Shown: positions 3,406-57,966 of the stretch, piece after piece | Layout of the letters: the number at the start of each line of letters is the position of its first letter | Position numbering within the stretch: position 1 is the first letter of the stretch | Notes under the pieces: generated by a model | Database searches by the model: none | Told to the model about the DNA's origin: nothing | Seen by the model: the letters and a program-made list of their open reading frames with translations, nothing else | Translations under genes and position numbers: made by a program | NCBI GenBank assembly: GCA_021810455.1 | Contig: JAJZIU010000001.1 | Span: 4,613 to 68,612, forward strand | Source: Candidatus Micrarchaeota archaeon | GTDB taxonomy: Archaea > Micrarchaeota > Micrarchaeia > Micrarchaeales > CABMGC01 | Direction of reading: 5' to 3' | Length of the DNA stretch: 64,000 nt

Positions 3406-3491
3406 TGCGCCAGCCGGGATTTGAACCCGGGCAGCGAGCTTTTTCCGTTGAAATGGGAAGCTCGAATCCTACCAGGCTAGATTACTGGCGC
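3406..3491 (-). tRNA. tRNA-Gly(CCC) with a 13-nt intron at the canonical 37/38 site
   Basis: The minus-strand read folds by hand as GCGCCAG-TA-ATCT-AGCCTGGTA-GGAT-T-CGAGC-[TTCCCA|tttcaacggaaaa|A]-GCTCG-CTGC-CCGGG-TTCAAAT-CCCGG-CTGGCGC-A. All four stems pair. The T-arm and acceptor resemble archaeal tRNA-Gly. No encoded CCA. The 5' end lies 8 nt after the stop of the upstream ORF. Confidence 0.75.
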
Positions 3492-5288: not shown

Positions 5289-5603
5289 TTACAGATTTTG
5301 GTTAAGCCACTTCTTAAAGCTCTCTTTTGGAACTGCGCCTACGGAAGTTGCCCTAACCTTGCCGTGATCAAAAAGGAGAGCGGTAGGTATGCTCATTATG
5401 TTGTATTTTGATGCGGTTTGAGGATTGTCATCAGTGTTCATCTTCGCGAATTTGGCTTTTCCTTCCAGTTCCTTTGAAACTTCATCCACTATAGGACTGA
5501 ATATTCTGCATGGACCACACCATGGGGCCCAGAAGTCGACCACGACAGGTACCTTGGAGTTTATTACTTCCTGTTCAAAGTTTGAGTCTGTGAGTTCCAT
5601 CAT
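5289..5603 (-). CDS. trxA: Thioredoxin
   Basis: WCGPC active site inside a thioredoxin-length fold (VVVDFWAPWCGPCRIFSPIV...). The track ORF extends to 5651. MMELTDSNF (5603/5600) gives the usual ~104-aa length. Confidence 0.9.
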   Translation of the reverse strand: MMELTDSNFEQEVINSKVPVVVDFWAPWCGPCRIFSPIVDEVSKELEGKAKFAKMNTDDNPQTASKYNIMSIPTALLFDHGKVRATSVGAVPKESFKKWLNQNL

Positions 5604-5660
5604 ATAAATCACAGAGTAATTTAAAGCGTCCAGTTTTAATAACTTTTCCACAAGTCGATA

Positions 5661-5674
5661 AAGATTTATATAAT
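5661..5674 (+). promoter_or_regulatory. BRE/TATA-like promoter element (AAAGATTTATATAA)
   Basis: Purine-rich BRE-like AAAG followed by TTTATATA. The same (A)GATTTA(A/T)ATA core recurs at 20766-20780 (tuf) and 40351-40360 (acidic mini-ORF). The predicted TSS ~22-27 nt downstream coincides with box C of the candidate sRNA. Confidence 0.45.
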
Positions 5675-5694
5675 TGCATTGAGATTCCTTATGA

Positions 5695-5745
5695 GTGATG
5701 AGACATTGCCTCTGACTTGCGTATGATGAGGATCTTTAGTACTGA
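5695..5745 (+). ncRNA. Candidate C/D box guide sRNA (in the leader of the histone-fold gene)
   Basis: C GTGATGA 5695-5701; 10-nt spacer gacattgcct; D' CTGA 5712-5715; 7 nt; C' ATGATGA 5723-5729; 12-nt spacer ggatctttagta; D CTGA 5742-5745. Box order is complete and spacing near-canonical. Only ~2 bp of terminal stem. No target could be checked because no rRNA is in the window. Confidence 0.55.
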
Positions 5746-5749
5746 TTCG

Positions 5750-5971
5750 ATGGCCAGAATACCCAGTTCTTATATAAAAAAGATGCTCAGGGAAAGTTTT
5801 GGAGTTAATATAACAGAGGAAGGTGCAGAGGAAGTTGCAAAAATTCTCGAGGATAAAGCCAGGGAGATTTCAGAATATGCAGTTTTCAATGCTAAGAAGG
5901 AAAGTAGACTGAAAGTAACACGTGAAGATATTCTGGATTACATAATAAAGGGTTCTGATGGAAACTCTTGA
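5750..5971 (+). CDS. Archaeal histone-fold protein (HMf/NF-YB-like)
   Basis: MARIPSSYIKKMLRESFGVNITEEGAEEVAKILEDKAREISEYAVFNAKKESRLKVTREDILDYI follows the helix-strand-helix pattern of archaeal histones (MA.lP.a.i.ri....g..ris.eA...la..le......A...A...gRKTv...Di). The track start at 5717 (TTG) would translate through the candidate sRNA boxes, so ATG 5750 is preferred. Confidence 0.65.
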   Translation: MARIPSSYIKKMLRESFGVNITEEGAEEVAKILEDKAREISEYAVFNAKKESRLKVTREDILDYIIKGSDGNS

Positions 5972-6527
5972 AGTATATAAGTGTGGTGTAAGATACAAAA
6001 CAGCATTGCATAAACATGCAGATAAGGATGAATACTATTTTTGCACGTGTGAAAAAACCGCAAAAGGTATACTCATTACTGAATTTGATGAAAAAGGAGA
6101 GCCGATAAATCAAGTGTATACAAAATATGGAGATCCGGAGTCTATTTTGAAAAGATATGTTTTATCTTATTGCACCGTACATAGTATTTTGGTCAAGGAA
6201 ACTCCGAGTTGCGAAAAAGTAAGATTGAAAGTTTTATGTACAAATTGCAACAGAAACGAGGTTTACAGGGAACTTGATCTGGTAGATATAAGCCTGGTGG
6301 GGGAAATCCCTGTAGTACCAATTTTTAGATGTGGATCTTGTGGTAAAAGGTATTATTCACTTAGTGATACGTATCTTAAAAAACTTGTTGATGAGAATAG
6401 AGGCCTATTTGAAAATGATGAAATAAAAATGAGGGAAGATAACGAAAAACTTTTCATAAATACGTTAAATGACAATATAATAAGAATCTTCGCTTCCAAG
6501 AAGATTAGCAGAATCAGTGTGAAGTGA
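5958..6527 (+). CDS. Hypothetical protein with zinc-ribbon-like Cys pairs
   Basis: 189-aa ORF overlapping the histone gene by 14 nt. CTNCNRNE...RCGSCGKRY suggests a C4 zinc ribbon. No family recognised. Confidence 0.5.
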   Translation: METLEVYKCGVRYKTALHKHADKDEYYFCTCEKTAKGILITEFDEKGEPINQVYTKYGDPESILKRYVLSYCTVHSILVKETPSCEKVRLKVLCTNCNRNEVYRELDLVDISLVGEIPVVPIFRCGSCGKRYYSLSDTYLKKLVDENRGLFENDEIKMREDNEKLFINTLNDNIIRIFASKKISRISVK

Positions 6528-6537
6528 TTTTTTGGTA

Positions 6538-6777
6538 ATGAGCATATCAGAATTGTATGGTAAGACGATAATATCAAATGATGGAAAGATACTCGGCAAA
6601 GTAAAAGGAGTTATGTTGAATCTGGAAGAAGGCGAAGTATCGCACCTCTTAGTTACTGACATGGAACAGCTAATGAGAAGCAACAACCCTCGGAAAGATA
6701 TTCAAAAAAATAGTGTCGCTTACAGTAGGGTTAGAAAAGTTTCTGAAACCATTGTAGTCGGAATTGGTACGGAATGA
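6538..6777 (+). CDS. PRC-barrel domain protein
   Basis: MSISELYGKTIISNDGKILGKVKGVMLNLEEGEVSHLLV matches the PRC-barrel pattern (l.Gk.V....G..lG.v.dv..d...g.v..lvv). ATG at 6538 preferred over the track's TTG at 6532. Confidence 0.6.
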   Translation: MSISELYGKTIISNDGKILGKVKGVMLNLEEGEVSHLLVTDMEQLMRSNNPRKDIQKNSVAYSRVRKVSETIVVGIGTE

Positions 6778-6912
6778 TTACTTTGTAGATACCTCTTTAG
6801 CAAGTGAGGATCTTTTTTTTGCAAGTACACGATATCCGCAGTAAGGACATCTTGTTGAATTCTTTTCCGGAACCTTTATCTCCTTTTTACAATGTGCACA
6901 CATGTAGCCCAT
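6778..6912 (-). CDS. rpoP: DNA-directed RNA polymerase subunit P (Rpo12/RpoP); not in the ORF track (<60 aa)
   Basis: Manual translation gives MGYMCAHCKKEIKVPEKNSTRCPYCGYRVLAKKRSSLAKEVSTK (44 aa). The CxxC...RCPYCGYRvL zinc ribbon is the RpoP signature. It sits at the distal end of the exosome superoperon, where rpoP is classically found. Confidence 0.75.
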   Translation of the reverse strand: MGYMCAHCKKEIKVPEKNSTRCPYCGYRVLAKKRSSLAKEVSTK

Positions 6913-37257: not shown

Positions 37258-37368
37258 ACCCTTTATTTCCACTATTTTTTAAAGTTATTTTTCAAAAATA
37301 TGAATTAATTTTAATTTAATATAGTACTATATATAATATATAACACACGAATAGTGGAAATGAACCCT
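37257..37368. repeat. 12-bp perfect inverted repeat flanking ~73 bp of near-pure A/T, bracketed by AACCCT direct repeats
   Basis: IR-L ATTTCCACTATT 37265-37276; IR-R AATAGTGGAAAT 37350-37361 (exact reverse complement). The interior has about 9 G/C in 73 nt by hand count. AACCCT occurs at 37257-37262 and 37363-37368. Confidence 0.6.
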
Positions 37369-37379
37369 CTGTTGGTCTT

Positions 37380-37823
37380 ATGGAAGATGATATTAGTATT
37401 ATATTTTCAAAATTTTCCGAAGAGAAAAAAACAGGAGAACTATTGCCTCTTCCGATAGATTTTTATTCAAGATACGGTAATAATACAAACGACGAATCTC
37501 GTGAAAACAAGAACAAAACCATATCCGCACTAAAAGCAAAAAGAATGCAAAAAATACTCGTGTACCTTGCTTATGGAAGGCCGCTGCCACAGCAGGTACC
37601 TGAAGAGGAAAAACACATTTATCAGGAAATCAAAAAACTAATATCCCAAAAAACAAAAGAAGACACAAAAAAACTAAAAATCCTGATAAAGATCCCAGAA
37701 ATAATAACCCCAGAAGGACAGAAGATAGGGCCTTATGAAAAAAACCAAATAATAGAAACAAGTAATAATAGCAATGTGGAATATATACTAAAGAATAAAA
37801 TCGGAGAAATTATAGAACAGTGA
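37380..37823 (+). CDS. GINS subunit-like protein (Gins51/Gins15-like, compact)
   Basis: 147 aa. N-terminal ELLPLPIDFYSRY...KRMQKILVYLA...VPEEEKHIYQEI resembles the GINS A-domain. C-terminal LKILIKIPEIITPEGQKIGPYEKNQIIETSN..VEYILKNKIGEII resembles the B-domain (v.vl.diP.f.g.dg..yGP...gd.........a..l...g.ae.I). Called by eye only. Confidence 0.5.
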   Translation: MEDDISIIFSKFSEEKKTGELLPLPIDFYSRYGNNTNDESRENKNKTISALKAKRMQKILVYLAYGRPLPQQVPEEEKHIYQEIKKLISQKTKEDTKKLKILIKIPEIITPEGQKIGPYEKNQIIETSNNSNVEYILKNKIGEIIEQ

Positions 37824-37828
37824 TAAAC

Positions 37829-38110
37829 ATGAAAATAGCAAAAGAGATAAACACATACTGTCCATATTGTAATGCGCACACTTTACATGTTGTAAAGATG
37901 GTATCTAAGACTAAGCAGCGCGGTTTGGGGAAAGCAACACGAAGGCACGAACGAGCAATCAAGGGATACGTGGGTAGCGTAGAACTTAAAATCCATCCAA
38001 AAAAACTTGGTAAAAAACAAAAAGTCATACTCACATGTAAAAAATGTAATAAGCAAATCGAAAAGACTTTGGGGAAGAGGACAAAGAAGAAGATAGAAAT
38101 AAAGCGATAA
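37829..38110 (+). CDS. rpl44e: Ribosomal protein eL42 (L44e)
   Basis: TYCPYCNAHTLHVV...GYVGS...LTCKKCNK matches the eL42 zinc-ribbon layout. ATG 37829 preferred over the track GTG at 37820. Confidence 0.88.
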   Translation: MKIAKEINTYCPYCNAHTLHVVKMVSKTKQRGLGKATRRHERAIKGYVGSVELKIHPKKLGKKQKVILTCKKCNKQIEKTLGKRTKKKIEIKR

Positions 38111-38111
38111 A

Positions 38112-54191: not shown

Positions 54192-56429
54192 TCATTCCTG
54201 CTTCTTTTTCTGTTTACCGTATATGGGGAGTGTGAACCAGAATGTACTTCCTTTCCCTGGTTCAGACACGACTCCCATCCTCCCTCCATGGAGATTCACA
54301 ACCTCTTTAGCTATTGACAAACCAAGTCCTGTACCCTGCCCCTCCTGTCTGGTAAGGCCTCTTTTCGGTAATTGATAAAACTTTTTAAAAAGTTTTGATT
54401 TATCTTCCTTACTTATTCCTATTCCTGTATCTTGTACTTCAAACCTGATATTCTTTCCCTTCCTAACCACATTAACTCCGATACTTCCTTCGTCGGTGAA
54501 TTTTAATGCGTTTCCTATAAGGTTTACGAACACCTGAATCAGTCTATTCGGATCCGCTTCTATCTCTGGCACATTATATCCAACATTAAAATAGAACCGC
54601 AAATTTTTGTTTGCTGCAACCTCCGCTAATGATTTTATGCTAGGATTTTCACCAAGCATCTTAAAATCTACTTTTTGCATGTCAAGTTTTATTTTTCCAG
54701 ATGACAATTTTGCCACATCCAATATCTGGCCTATCAACTGCATTAATCTTTCAGATTCATCTATTATTATCTGCACCGTTTTCTTCTGATCTTGTGTTAT
54801 GTCTCCAAATTCTCCTCCAATCAGGAGTTTTGAGAAACCTATGATATTTGTTATCGGAGTTTTAAGATCGTGTGATATATTATATATAAATTGGGTCTTC
54901 AAGTCGCTTTCTTCCTTTAGTTTCTCAAGCTGTCGCATAGATTCCTCAAATTCACTCTGCAATCTTTCTATCTCTCTTTTTGAAGCTAGCTCTGTGCAAA
55001 CAAATAAAAATTCTACAGATGCTTCTCGGTTTTTTGTTGCCATTACGCTTCCATTGAAAGGCATCGGTTCTTCCCCGCTTTTCTTTGAAAAATTAAGAAA
55101 AACATCTGTAACGAATCCATTTACTTTTGCAAGTTTTATCGCATTTCCCACTCTCAATTGGCTTTCTTTATCTGAGCACAACATCGATATGGGCATACTA
55201 TTTGAATCCTCTGCTTTGTAACCCAAACGTCTTTCAAAACCAGGATTTACTGATTTTATATATCCTGATTCATCAACAGTTATCAATGTGTCACTTGACA
55301 ATTTCATAATTGTCGAAATTGCACCTTCAACTTCGGTTATCCTGCTTTCAATGTCTCTAGAAACTATTACCGAGAAGCCTTCGACATCCTTGTAGAAAAG
55401 GCCTTTTGCATCAACAAACATGTTGTTTCCTATGTTTATTTTAAGCGGCAGAGATGCCTGTTCATTCATATTACTGAGTTGTTGTTCATCCAATCCTTGA
55501 ACAAATTCCACCAATTTTCTACCTATTAACGCATCTTTCTCTATGCGCAGTACACGGTCTGCATTATCACTAACCCATCCTATGTTTGTATCATTGCTTA
55601 TACGCATGAAAACATCTTCATCGCTCCTTTCCAAAAAACTATACATTCCCTCAAGCCATTTGAGCCTGGTTATATCTAGCAAAGAGATGTGTGATAATCT
55701 GTCGTTTATTTTGTTCGAAGAAAACAGAAATACGCCTTTGTCATCCCTGGACTTTACCTCAATTCTCATATTCTTTGAAAAAGAAGCAGAAGGATCCTGT
55801 CCCAATTCTATAAACTTTGTTATTCCTTGCCCGACCACCTCCTCGGATATCTTATCCAACATATTTATTGCGTTTTTGTTAGCCTTGACTATAACTCCGG
55901 AACCATCAATGACAAGTTGCGGCACGTAATTTCCAAATGAAGCATCAAAGTACTTTGCTAGCCCTAGACTCTTGTCACGCTCATAGCTTGCGAGTATCCT
56001 ATAACTTAACGAATTCAAAGCTAAAGAAATATGATCTACTATTTTCTCACTGAATGCATCTTCTCGTTTTGATAAAAGCGTAATTATCCCGAAAGATCTC
56101 CTTTCTGCACTAAGAGGAAGCAACAAACTGCTTTTATATCCGCTGTTATGGTACTCGATTAGCTCTTTGAAAGCCGAATATCCACTAAGCCTGTTATCCA
56201 GATACGGTTTTTCATTATTTAAAACAAAATCCTCTGCCGCACTGGCTTTTACACCCGGTCTCATATCTTTAACAATGGCCCTATCTGCGCCTAACTCTAA
56301 TCTGAGTCTATCTCCAAGTTTGTTCAGGAAGTTGCCGAAATCTGTTGCTTCCCTGCTCATGTTTAATATTTCATTGACGAATACGTCCCAAGATGTTGAC
56401 GCCATAGCAAACAATAAAGAATTAGGCAT
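54192..56429 (-). CDS. Soluble sensor histidine kinase (GAF/PAS-like sensory region + HisKA + HATPase_c)
   Basis: 745 aa. H-box FIYNISHDLKTPITNIIGF, N-box VNLIGNALKFT and G-boxes QDTGIGI / GTGLGLSIAKEVV. No obvious TM helix. The N-terminal ~480 aa has a PAS/GAF-like length and pattern. Confidence 0.86.
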   Translation of the reverse strand: MPNSLLFAMASTSWDVFVNEILNMSREATDFGNFLNKLGDRLRLELGADRAIVKDMRPGVKASAAEDFVLNNEKPYLDNRLSGYSAFKELIEYHNSGYKSSLLLPLSAERRSFGIITLLSKREDAFSEKIVDHISLALNSLSYRILASYERDKSLGLAKYFDASFGNYVPQLVIDGSGVIVKANKNAINMLDKISEEVVGQGITKFIELGQDPSASFSKNMRIEVKSRDDKGVFLFSSNKINDRLSHISLLDITRLKWLEGMYSFLERSDEDVFMRISNDTNIGWVSDNADRVLRIEKDALIGRKLVEFVQGLDEQQLSNMNEQASLPLKINIGNNMFVDAKGLFYKDVEGFSVIVSRDIESRITEVEGAISTIMKLSSDTLITVDESGYIKSVNPGFERRLGYKAEDSNSMPISMLCSDKESQLRVGNAIKLAKVNGFVTDVFLNFSKKSGEEPMPFNGSVMATKNREASVEFLFVCTELASKREIERLQSEFEESMRQLEKLKEESDLKTQFIYNISHDLKTPITNIIGFSKLLIGGEFGDITQDQKKTVQIIIDESERLMQLIGQILDVAKLSSGKIKLDMQKVDFKMLGENPSIKSLAEVAANKNLRFYFNVGYNVPEIEADPNRLIQVFVNLIGNALKFTDEGSIGVNVVRKGKNIRFEVQDTGIGISKEDKSKLFKKFYQLPKRGLTRQEGQGTGLGLSIAKEVVNLHGGRMGVVSEPGKGSTFWFTLPIYGKQKKKQE

Positions 56430-56462
56430 GTATTATATAAATCACATCCACGAGTGCGCTTT

Positions 56463-57122
56463 ATGACAATAAAAGAAATATCTGAAGGAGTGTTCAAGAT
56501 AGATGGAAGAATAGCTACCGCAAATTTTGTTAAAGGACAAAAGGTATACGACGAAGACCTGCGCAAGGTAAACGGTGTAGAATACAGGCTATGGAATCCT
56601 TACAGGAGTAAGTTAGCTGCAGCATTCTTGAAAGGAATGAAGACAATGAGGATAGCAAAAGGATCTAGCGTTCTTTATCTCGGAGCTGCTACTGGAACTA
56701 CGTGTAGCCACATAAGCGACATAGTTGGGGATACGGGGGTTGTATACTGTGTAGAAAATTCAGAGAGAAGCATGCGCGACCTACTCTCAATCTGCGACTC
56801 TAGGAAAAATATGATGCCTATCTTCTCTGATGCAAGAAATACAAAAGAGTATGGTCCGGAGGTTGGTGTTGTTGATGTACTGTATCAGGATGTTTCTGCA
56901 AGAGATCAAGCCTCCATACTCGTTGACAACTCACAGTTCTTAAAAGAAAAGGGATATGCTTACGTAGCCATAAAATCACAGAGTATAAGTGTTTCTAAAA
57001 ATCCAAGCATAGTTTACAAAGAGTTTCTTAAACAAGTGTCTACTGTTTTCAAAACCGTAGAATCCATAGACATAAGGCCGTTCGATCAAAAACACTTGTT
57101 TGTGGTTCTACAAAAATTATAA
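56463..57122 (+). CDS. flpA: Fibrillarin (C/D box sRNP rRNA/tRNA 2'-O-methyltransferase)
   Basis: YRLWNPYRSKLAAAFLKG, VLYLGAATGTTCSHISDIVG and DVLYQDV are fibrillarin signatures. TATA-like TTATATAAAT lies ~25 nt upstream of ATG 56463. No nop5 gene is adjacent. Confidence 0.92.
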   Translation: MTIKEISEGVFKIDGRIATANFVKGQKVYDEDLRKVNGVEYRLWNPYRSKLAAAFLKGMKTMRIAKGSSVLYLGAATGTTCSHISDIVGDTGVVYCVENSERSMRDLLSICDSRKNMMPIFSDARNTKEYGPEVGVVDVLYQDVSARDQASILVDNSQFLKEKGYAYVAIKSQSISVSKNPSIVYKEFLKQVSTVFKTVESIDIRPFDQKHLFVVLQKL

Positions 57123-57183
57123 GGATGCATATATGCCTAAAAACTTCTGAAAGGAATATAAAAACACACTTGCATGTCTAATC

Positions 57184-57966
57184 ATGGACTATCTTAAATA
57201 CACGTCCTCTCTTGATAAAAACATGATTAAAACCCAATGCGCCTATTGTGGTTCATATGTTTTATCCTATTCTGAAGAAGCATTCTGTCATTTCTGCGAG
57301 GGGCACGTATCAAAAACAGAATCAAATAACGATCAAACATATCAAAGTATCCTTTCTATACGCAACCTGATCTCTACGAAGCACACATCTGAAGCGATAT
57401 CCGCTGCCGATTCCCTATCTATCAAGCAAACTTCGCCGCGTGTACTCTTCGGTCTGGCAAACATCTATCGCACGCTTTCCAATCATATTTACTTTGATAC
57501 TAACTACAATCTTGATGGATTCATGTACAAAAATTCTGACAACATATATCTATCACTTGATCTCATATCAAAATCTAAGGAAATGTTCTACAAGCACATA
57601 AAACTGTCTGTAGAAACCGATCCCATATCAACATTCACCCTATTCATAAGTAATCTTAAACTGGAACGTATGATTTATGCAAAAAAACTACTAGAAAAAC
57701 TTGTCAATATGCCCGGACTTATATCGAACTACGCCATAATGGCTTACTCTGCAGAAAATAAACTTAAACAAGCTGATATCAGCGCACTTAAAATGATTGA
57801 TTCCAGTACTAACTCGTTATATTACCTGTCAAAATGTCTAATAAACATGAACAAACGCGAAGAAGCAGAAAAAATTCTCGAAAGGTTAACAACCACTATC
57901 GACATGCCCGATGCTTTTTATCTTTTACTCAAACTGCGGCGTCTCAAGGACGAAACGAAGATTTAG
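57184..57966 (+). CDS. Hypothetical protein, N-terminal zinc ribbon plus helical (TPR-like) body
   Basis: 260 aa. QCAYCGS....FCHFCEG C4 pattern, with the remainder predicted helical. The 3' end overlaps the convergent GH15 gene by 23 nt. Confidence 0.5.
   Translation: MDYLKYTSSLDKNMIKTQCAYCGSYVLSYSEEAFCHFCEGHVSKTESNNDQTYQSILSIRNLISTKHTSEAISAADSLSIKQTSPRVLFGLANIYRTLSNHIYFDTNYNLDGFMYKNSDNIYLSLDLISKSKEMFYKHIKLSVETDPISTFTLFISNLKLERMIYAKKLLEKLVNMPGLISNYAIMAYSAENKLKQADISALKMIDSSTNSLYYLSKCLINMNKREEAEKILERLTTTIDMPDAFYLLLKLRRLKDETKI

Follow-up and report, generated by a model that had tools for sequence, protein, structure and literature searches.

The 64,000-nucleotide (nt) stretch of a Candidatus Micrarchaeota genome analysed here (hereafter the window) carries, at positions 5695-5745 of its plus strand, what is probably a functional archaeal box C/D small RNA (sRNA) gene. 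We consider this element a micrarchaeal orthologue of the sR47-type guide that forms the first 51 nt of the messenger RNA (mRNA) of a histone-fold gene, a reading to which we give a probability of roughly 0.8 on the strength of comparative sequence analysis. Both the sRNA type and the class of arrangement, an sRNA lying less than 25 nt upstream of an open reading frame (ORF) and co-transcribed with it, are already known. What is new is the presence of this guide in DPANN archaea and the breadth of its distribution, its conserved attachment to one particular gene, with a promoter placed so that the mRNA begins with the sRNA, and a variant of the guide at N+5, the fifth base upstream of box D.

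The complete set of boxes is found on the plus strand with exactly the spacings that an earlier, sequence-only reading of this DNA had described. Box C (GTGATGA, 5695-5701) is followed by a D′ guide or spacer of 10 nt (5702-5711; GACATTGCCT / GACAUUGCCU), box D′ (CTGA, 5712-5715), a D′-C′ spacer of 7 nt (CTTGCGT, 5716-5722), box C′ (ATGATGA, 5723-5729), the sR47-type D guide of 12 nt (5730-5741; GGATCTTTAGTA / GGAUCUUUAGUA) and box D (CTGA, 5742-5745). The terminal boxes C and D have the RUGAUGA and CUGA forms that can build a kink-turn (k-turn), and the internal D′ and C′ boxes are separated by a distance within the 3-9 nt range, as they are in 41 relatives. Against a norm of about 12 nt, the D guide has the usual length and the D′ spacer is indeed short, as the earlier reading had remarked (8-13 nt in relatives, with a mode of 9). 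A D guide of about 12 nt next to a short D′ spacer fits a single-guide sRNA.

Such an arrangement is not expected by chance in a sequence of this size. Scanning both strands of the 64-kb window for TGATGA-N8-14-CTGA-N2-12-TGATGA-N8-14-CTGA returned this single match, and the pattern appeared in none of 300 dinucleotide-preserving shuffles; rough analytic arithmetic places the chance expectation at about 1e-4 per window. When up to two mismatches were permitted in the internal boxes, 5695-5745 was still the sole site. At gathering thresholds, Rfam recognizes only three transfer RNAs (tRNAs) in the whole window. In the Rfam search, which had been proposed as a check, a permissive scan of 5500-5900 yields end-to-end matches to archaeal C/D families only, all of them below threshold. 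The best is sR5 (RF01304; 26.8 bits, E = 2.4e-4, threshold 40), next comes snoPyro_CD (RF00095; 19.6 bits, threshold 45), and sR2, sR33 and sR3 also match. Sub-threshold scores of this kind are expected for a C/D sRNA whose guides are unlike those of the curated families.

Evidence for function also comes from relatives. A homologue search with the histone-fold protein of 73 amino acids (aa) returned only the protein itself, so the 189-aa product of the neighbouring gene was used as a synteny anchor instead. Seven contigs picked solely by homology to this neighbour (37-49% identity) formed an unbiased set, and in each of them the histone-fold ATG is immediately preceded by all four boxes together with the D-guide core. 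The invariant columns of the alignment are the four boxes, ten D-guide bases in the string GATCTT-N-AGT, the TATA core and the opening codons of the histone-fold gene; at N, only the window differs within this set. The D′ spacer, the D′-C′ spacer and the flanks have diverged. Box C is invariant in the seven synteny-selected relatives and is present in all 42 parsed Micrarchaeota copies. The gap between box D and ATG measures 4, 4, 5, 4, 4, 4, 4 and 4 nt in the window and the unbiased set, and 1-37 nt, mostly 1-5, across a wider Micrarchaeota set, so that the reading frame is not preserved and the conservation is not protein-coding. Loss of the boxes beside a conserved flanking protein had been named as the pattern that would speak against an sRNA; we found the reverse, with invariant boxes and flanking proteins that are only 37-60% identical. 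On the evidence of these alignments, the four-box conservation is that of a functional RNA rather than chance. The D′ spacer, variable in length and sequence among relatives, is probably non-functional or an orphan guide.

The conserved core of the D guide, GAUCUUGAGU (5′-N-GAUCUUGAGU-R-3′, then CUGA), is the reverse complement of ACUCAAGAUC, which in tRNA numbering reads A31 C32 U33 C34 A35 A36 G37 A38 U39 C40, the anticodon arm of tRNA-Leu(CAA), and it places C34 opposite N+5. The consensus guide of the relatives forms 10-11 contiguous Watson-Crick pairs with the Pyrococcus abyssi tRNA-Leu(CAA) substrate GACUCAAGAUCC (PMC3413156). Tomkuviene et al. reported that the sequence upstream of box D in P. 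abyssi sR47 guides methylation of C34 in this tRNA, with activity in vitro, and the tRNA sequence ...AAGGCGGGGGACUCAAGAUCCCCUCCCGUAGGGGU... can be read from their substrate oligonucleotides and primers (PMC3413156). In Pyrococcus, Breuer et al. count four sRNAs directed at nucleotide 34, in tRNA-Leu(CAA), Leu(UAA), Met and Trp (PMC7994747), and Wolff et al. list C34 of tRNA-Leu(CAA) among the predicted fibrillarin targets of P. furiosus (PMC7668247). sRNAs that target tRNAs typically use one guide and leave the other an orphan (PMC7994747), the pattern seen here in the conserved D guide and the variable D′ guide. Because the guide complements tRNA-Leu(CAA) as published, and because Thermococcus matches carry the same 22-nt module, the locus can be assigned by homology to the sR47-type family of putative tRNA-Leu(CAA) anticodon-loop guides.

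Compared by way of its target, the splint sequences and its Thermococcus homologues, P. abyssi sR47 shares with the window the same architecture, the core GAUCUUGAGU immediately before box D and C34 at N+5, whereas N+5, normally G, is U in the window copy. The D′ guides are unrelated, the host of the window copy belongs to DPANN, and its sRNA is fused to an mRNA 5′ end, while sR47 stands alone. Other C/D guides directed at the wobble nucleotide 34 are likewise embedded in the transcript of another gene, such as the guide in the pre-tRNA-Trp intron and sR-tMet (PMC7994747). In the window, by contrast, the guide is carried by an mRNA that has no relation to the target tRNA, so that the guide must act in trans. 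In eukaryotes, as described in PMC6847430, Trm7/FTSJ1 places the same type of mark, a 2′-O-methylated nucleotide 34, on tRNA-Leu(CAA/UAA), Phe(GAA) and Trp, in a protein-only enzyme system that works without a guide RNA. The anticodon arm ACU-N-AAGAUC is shared by tRNA-Phe and tRNA-Leu, which bears on the U-variant guide discussed below.

Neither the window nor the loci fetched for comparison supplied the predicted target itself. No tRNA-Leu(CAA) was detected in about 1 Mb of fetched loci, and some 8 kb of sequence beyond the window holds no tRNA. One dubious "Phe(GAA)" call in the fetched loci (L094) resembles an intron-containing class-II tRNA. The ARAGORN calls "tRNA-Leu(CAA)" in L008 and "tRNA-Gly(TCC)" or "Phe(AAA)" in the window are one and the same intron-containing tRNA-Gly(CCC), not the target. 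This tRNA-Gly(CCC), with an intron of 12-13 nt at position 37/38, lies beside an MJ0538-family gene in the window (3406-3491, minus strand), in L008 (421-505) and in L025, L078 and L087. A ribosomal RNA (rRNA) target was also considered: scanning the E. coli rrn operon with both guides gave only a D-guide complement of 10/12 at about 23S position 2878 and a sarcin-ricin loop (SRL)-like match of 8/12, which is chance-level by estimate (about 0.17), and this candidate was rejected in favour of the tRNA. No convincing complement to the guides occurs among the annotated RNAs of the window, and the D′ guide GACAUUGCCU (target AGGCAAUGUC) finds none in the window or the E. coli rrn operon; we treat it as an orphan. 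A string search of the literature for the window's own guide sequences recovered only unrelated primers. Separately, the region 37258-38111, after a tRNA-Met, lacks any ORF of at least 150 aa and has no Rfam match at gathering thresholds; within it, positions 37684-37695 (TGATAAAGATCC) are complementary to 11 of the 12 bases of the D guide.

The D-guide module extends far beyond Micrarchaeota. Scanning one genome per GTDB species for TGATGA-N-GATCTTKAGTR-CTGA, we found the C′, D-guide and D module in at least 120 species-level genomes from at least seven archaeal lineages. Among the matches listed are Micrarchaeota, many Thermoplasmatota, Thermococcus and other Thermococcaceae, Methanobacteriota and Methanomassiliicoccales, together with a Methanosarcinales genome assembled from metagenomes (MAG), DHVE2, Nitrosocaldus and Heimdallarchaeum endolithica. 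The upstream boxes C and D′ are also present in most of the listed matches. An identical 22-nt C′-guide-D module occurs in at least ten Thermococcus/Thermococcaceae genomes. The D′ guide is clade-specific, ACGAACCYTTKC in Thermoplasmatota and CCTCGGCAGNG in Thermococcus.

Some of these copies have features of their own. Those of Thermoplasmatota keep ACGAACCYTTKC as a second conserved guide along with a small hairpin between D′ and C′ (L015, L023, L029, L030, L038, L041, L046, L055, L058, L064, L079-L081, L100, L119, L120, L129, L130 and others), and in many of them a conserved palindrome, AGATATGCT...AGCATATCT, lies about 10-25 nt downstream. The copy of Heimdallarchaeum endolithica (CP084167.1; L131 3880-3935) combines the module with a degenerate C box, ATGATGT, and a terminal stem of 5 bp, GTGGC/GCCAC.

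The window copy departs from this family at a single, critical base. At position 5737 (N+5), the window and every strain-level copy have T, and all seven synteny-selected relatives and 119 of the 120 scan matches listed have G; the only other T copy among them is L054, which a crude neighbour-joining tree of two downstream proteins places as the deep sister of the window (48% identity). The window guide pairs with the tRNA-Leu(CAA) arm through runs of 3 and 7 Watson-Crick pairs, with a U:C mismatch between them at N+5. The defining G(N+5):C34 pair of the sR47 type is thus absent from this copy, and it is through homology that the locus is assigned to the family. Methylation has been reported to require Watson-Crick pairing at N+5 (PMC6009581); with U in place of G there, the window lineage is not expected to carry out canonical C34 methylation, and its copy may be unable to methylate C34.

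Both U-variant lineages keep the rest of the D guide and differ in their D′ spacers, which argues that the guide is still under selection and implies, as far as the comparison reaches, that it would continue to pair with the ACU-N-AAGAUC anticodon arm. The variant could reflect binding without methylation, retargeting to G34 of tRNA-Phe(GAA) through a G·U pair, or another RNA. The arm of tRNA-Phe(GAA), typically ACUGAAGAUC (also written GACUGAAGAUCC), would give this G·U pair at N+5. UUG codons are common in window genes, so UUG decoding is needed, whichever tRNAs serve it. A tRNA(AAA) that matches the U-variant guide perfectly did emerge from a metagenome scan. It is a single case on a contig of 29% GC content, from another organism, and was discarded as a target. 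That gene (L134 3839-3916, minus strand) encodes a class-I cloverleaf tRNA with A34 in its anticodon AAA and lies near ORFs resembling MutM, exonuclease III (Xth) and UppP. Such A34-A35-A36 tRNAs are unusual.

Upstream of box C, a B recognition element (BRE)/TATA-like element, AAAGATTTATATAA, occupies 5660-5673 on the plus strand, one base to the left of the 5661-5674 given in the sequence-only reading, which was otherwise right about its presence. Its TATA (TTTATATA, 5665-5672) lies about 26 nt upstream of box C. The same signal recurs when 41 Micrarchaeota loci are anchored on box C: A/T content reaches 93-100% at positions -29 to -25, 22 of these loci have their best TATA octamer beginning between -31 and -29, and a second AT-rich peak is found at -11 to -6. 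The usual distance from TATA to start in archaea is about 26 nt. From the position of the TATA and this distance we infer that transcription starts at or within about 2 nt of the purine opening box C, in keeping with the start site at box C that had been predicted. No comparable AT-rich signal occurs between the sRNA and the ATG, a gap of 4 nt that is too short to hold a second promoter. A bacterial-type scan, uninformative in an archaeon, reported no terminator-like site across 5560-6900. The link with the gene is likewise conserved: in tblastn comparisons, a histone-fold homologue starts 1-37 nt (mostly 1-5) past box D in 43 of 49 Micrarchaeota loci, and none of 77 loci from other phyla has a histone-fold gene after box D, among the matches listed in each case.

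These observations suggest a model in which a micrarchaeal sRNA without a transcription unit of its own would be made from the TATA at 5665-5672, on one transcript running into the cluster of the histone-fold, 189-aa and PRC-barrel genes. The D guide would pair with the anticodon stem-loop of tRNA-Leu(CAA) (nt 31-40/41), and C34, opposite N+5, would be 2′-O-methylated by fibrillarin, Nop5 and L7Ae. With the AUG only 1-5 nt from box D, the assembled small ribonucleoprotein (sRNP) should occlude the start codon while the leader remains uncleaved, and efficient translation would therefore need a cut in this short linker, which would free the sRNP and leave the histone-fold mRNA with practically no leader. 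Another possibility is that each transcript gives rise to one of the two products only. A simple rationale would be reduced-genome economy, the sRNA borrowing the promoter, assumed to be strong, of a chromatin-protein gene. Regulatory coupling of the sRNA and the histone-fold gene would also be possible.

The closest precedents are those of Tripp et al. (2017), as reviewed in PMC7994747. There, C/D sRNA maturation needs the box motifs only, sRNAs are commonly trimmed from longer transcripts to a protected core, and sRNAs overlapping the 5′ end of a gene lower expression of the downstream gene in reporters. In those cases, as in the window, fewer than 25 nt separate the sRNA from the start codon downstream, and its processing from a longer transcript, as would be expected here too, depends on the boxes alone. 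Those cases, in the same account, are rare (7%), species-specific and detrimental to the gene downstream, whereas here the same pairing is kept in 43 of the 49 Micrarchaeota species-level genomes among the matches listed, and the promoter makes the sRNA the very 5′ end of the mRNA. Since 5′ overlaps are rare (7%) and lowered reporter expression in that account, phylum-wide retention in Micrarchaeota is an unusual feature of the arrangement.

Two rival readings concern whether the boxes belong to an RNA at all and whether that RNA is joined to the gene. Gene callers annotate products of 82 and 84 aa, which could mean that the motifs are fortuitous or encode a genuine N-terminal extension, and the 84-aa ORF with the extension MRMMRIFSTDS does exist, with a TTG start at 5717. 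This extension is, as had been pointed out, boxes C′ and D read as protein, and the ATG inside box C′ is the one miscalled as the gene start of the 82-aa product in public MAGs. The true start is the ATG at 5750, separated from box D by the 4-nt linker TTCG (5746-5749) as originally proposed: the alignment with the Pfam histone-fold profile begins at residue 3 of the 73-aa ORF, and the gap between box D and ATG varies by non-multiples of 3. Because the profile begins there, the 82-aa and 84-aa calls are, to judge from the alignment, artefacts. With the pattern missing from all 300 shuffles, boxes that are invariant in relatives, frame-breaking gaps of 1, 2, 4, 5, 9 and more nt, and the same module in non-coding contexts of other phyla, an origin by chance or as coding sequence is extremely improbable. 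The same upstream overextension of the histone-fold gene into C′ and D recurs across MAGs (window 5717-5749 and 5723-5749; L001, L002, L004, L006, L010, L137). It is also improbable, to a lesser degree, that the sRNA and the histone-fold gene are transcribed separately, the mRNA being leaderless and driven by a weak promoter inside the sRNA. Leaderless mRNAs are common in archaea, and a 1-5-nt gap would fit a transcription start at the AUG. The required TATA, however, would fall on the D′-C′ spacer and box C′, of which the former varies from 3 to 9 nt and the latter is not TATA-like, and position-specific AT-rich peaks occur only upstream of box C.

A different emphasis is placed by the view that, in the window lineage, the element is mainly a cis-acting k-turn 5′ leader that binds L7Ae or the sRNP and gates translation or stability of the mRNA, its guide function having been lost through the U at N+5. 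L7Ae-binding k-turns in archaeal 5′ untranslated regions mediate translational autoregulation. Like these, the element has a k-turn-forming motif adjoining a start codon; it differs in having a full double C/D set and a conserved antisense guide, and the likeness is one of geometry. The AUG 4 nt after box D, within the expected sRNP footprint, the lack of a Shine-Dalgarno-like motif in the 20 nt before the ATG and the conserved linkage to the histone-fold gene across Micrarchaeota would suit such a leader. So would the N+5 mismatch with C34 shared with L054, the deep sister in the crude tree, and the precedent of conserved N+5 mismatches with presumed non-methylating roles in Pyrobaculum (PMC6009581). 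On the other hand, the same guide is kept in phyla whose copies have no histone-fold gene behind them (0 of 77 loci among the matches listed), which argues that the sequence is constrained by a trans target and not by a leader role, and the other 10-11 guide bases are intact in the U-variant lineages, needless for a pure k-turn leader. We regard this alternative as unlikely; it is compatible with an sRNA and only reweights which function matters. A riboswitch-like structured leader was rejected as unlikely, since minimum free energy folding of the leader is no more stable than that of shuffles (z = -0.55). Another reading that we regard as unlikely is an obligate bifunctional transcript, in which the sRNP on the 5′ end would set cleavage 1-5 nt before the AUG, maturing both the guide and a leaderless mRNA, uncleaved molecules being silenced, and the G-to-U change at N+5 in the window/L054 clade would be a retargeting from C34 to a tRNA with a purine at position 34, such as tRNA-Phe(GAA). 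If true, synthesis of a chromatin protein would be coupled to the capacity of the RNA-modification machinery.

Several points weigh against a functional sR47-type sRNA at the 5′ end of the histone-fold mRNA and temper our estimate. Expression, 5′ and 3′ ends and processing are inferred, and the pairing of guide and target was computed with the published P. abyssi tRNA. The U at 5737 is mismatched to C34, only 10 nt separate C from D′, and no C/D family reached its Rfam gathering score in the window or at the equivalent site of the Thermococcus loci. Nop5 and L7Ae were not found in the window by motif search in about 80 kb including the extension. The reporter losses with 5′-overlapping sRNAs described in PMC7994747 are also at odds with efficient production of the histone-fold protein.

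The element has implications beyond this genome. A guide characterized only in Pyrococcus proves to be among the most widely conserved archaeal C/D sRNAs, being present in DPANN, Thermoplasmatota, Thaumarchaeota and an Asgard genome, and this broad distribution implies that 2′-O-methylation of C34 (Cm34) in tRNA-Leu(CAA) is an ancient RNA-guided modification. Micrarchaeota would also offer a natural, phylum-wide case of an sRNA at an mRNA 5′ end, an arrangement disfavoured in reporter studies, and thereby a system for asking how sRNP assembly, RNA processing and leaderless translation interact in reduced archaeal genomes. The U variant is a natural experiment on the Watson-Crick rule at N+5. 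At the level of annotation, the analysis corrects an error in public MAGs, which extend the histone-fold gene into boxes C′ and D.

Downstream of the element on the plus strand, the histone-fold gene (5750-5971, 73 aa; CBFD_NFYB_HMF, Pfam E = 5.5e-6) is overlapped at its end by the 189-aa cysteine-rich ORF (5958-6527), which probably belongs to the same operon, and the PRC-barrel gene (6532-6777) is the third member of this conserved cluster. Fibrillarin, which serves C/D sRNPs as methyltransferase, is encoded in the window, as had been stated, at 56454-57122 on the plus strand (Pfam PF01269, E = 4e-75), outside the sRNA locus and acting in trans. In archaea the fibrillarin and nop5 genes are usually adjacent; here fibrillarin has no nop5 beside it, and the genes next to it encode a histidine kinase, on the other strand, and a tetratricopeptide repeat (TPR) protein (54192-57966).

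The locus is identical base for base in several assemblies, including the NCBI MAG GCA_027366495.1. The source MAG of the window, including its histone-fold protein, is labelled "Candidatus Marsarchaeota" at NCBI, as is L097, but all syntenic relatives and protein homologues belong to Micrarchaeota/Micrarchaeia (DPANN); the label is probably wrong. On the other side of the promoter, a thioredoxin gene (5289-5651, minus strand, 120 aa) is transcribed divergently from the sRNA. In the relative L009, the thioredoxin gene beside the sRNA (277-2076) encodes 599 aa, with a match to an intein splicing domain (PF14890).

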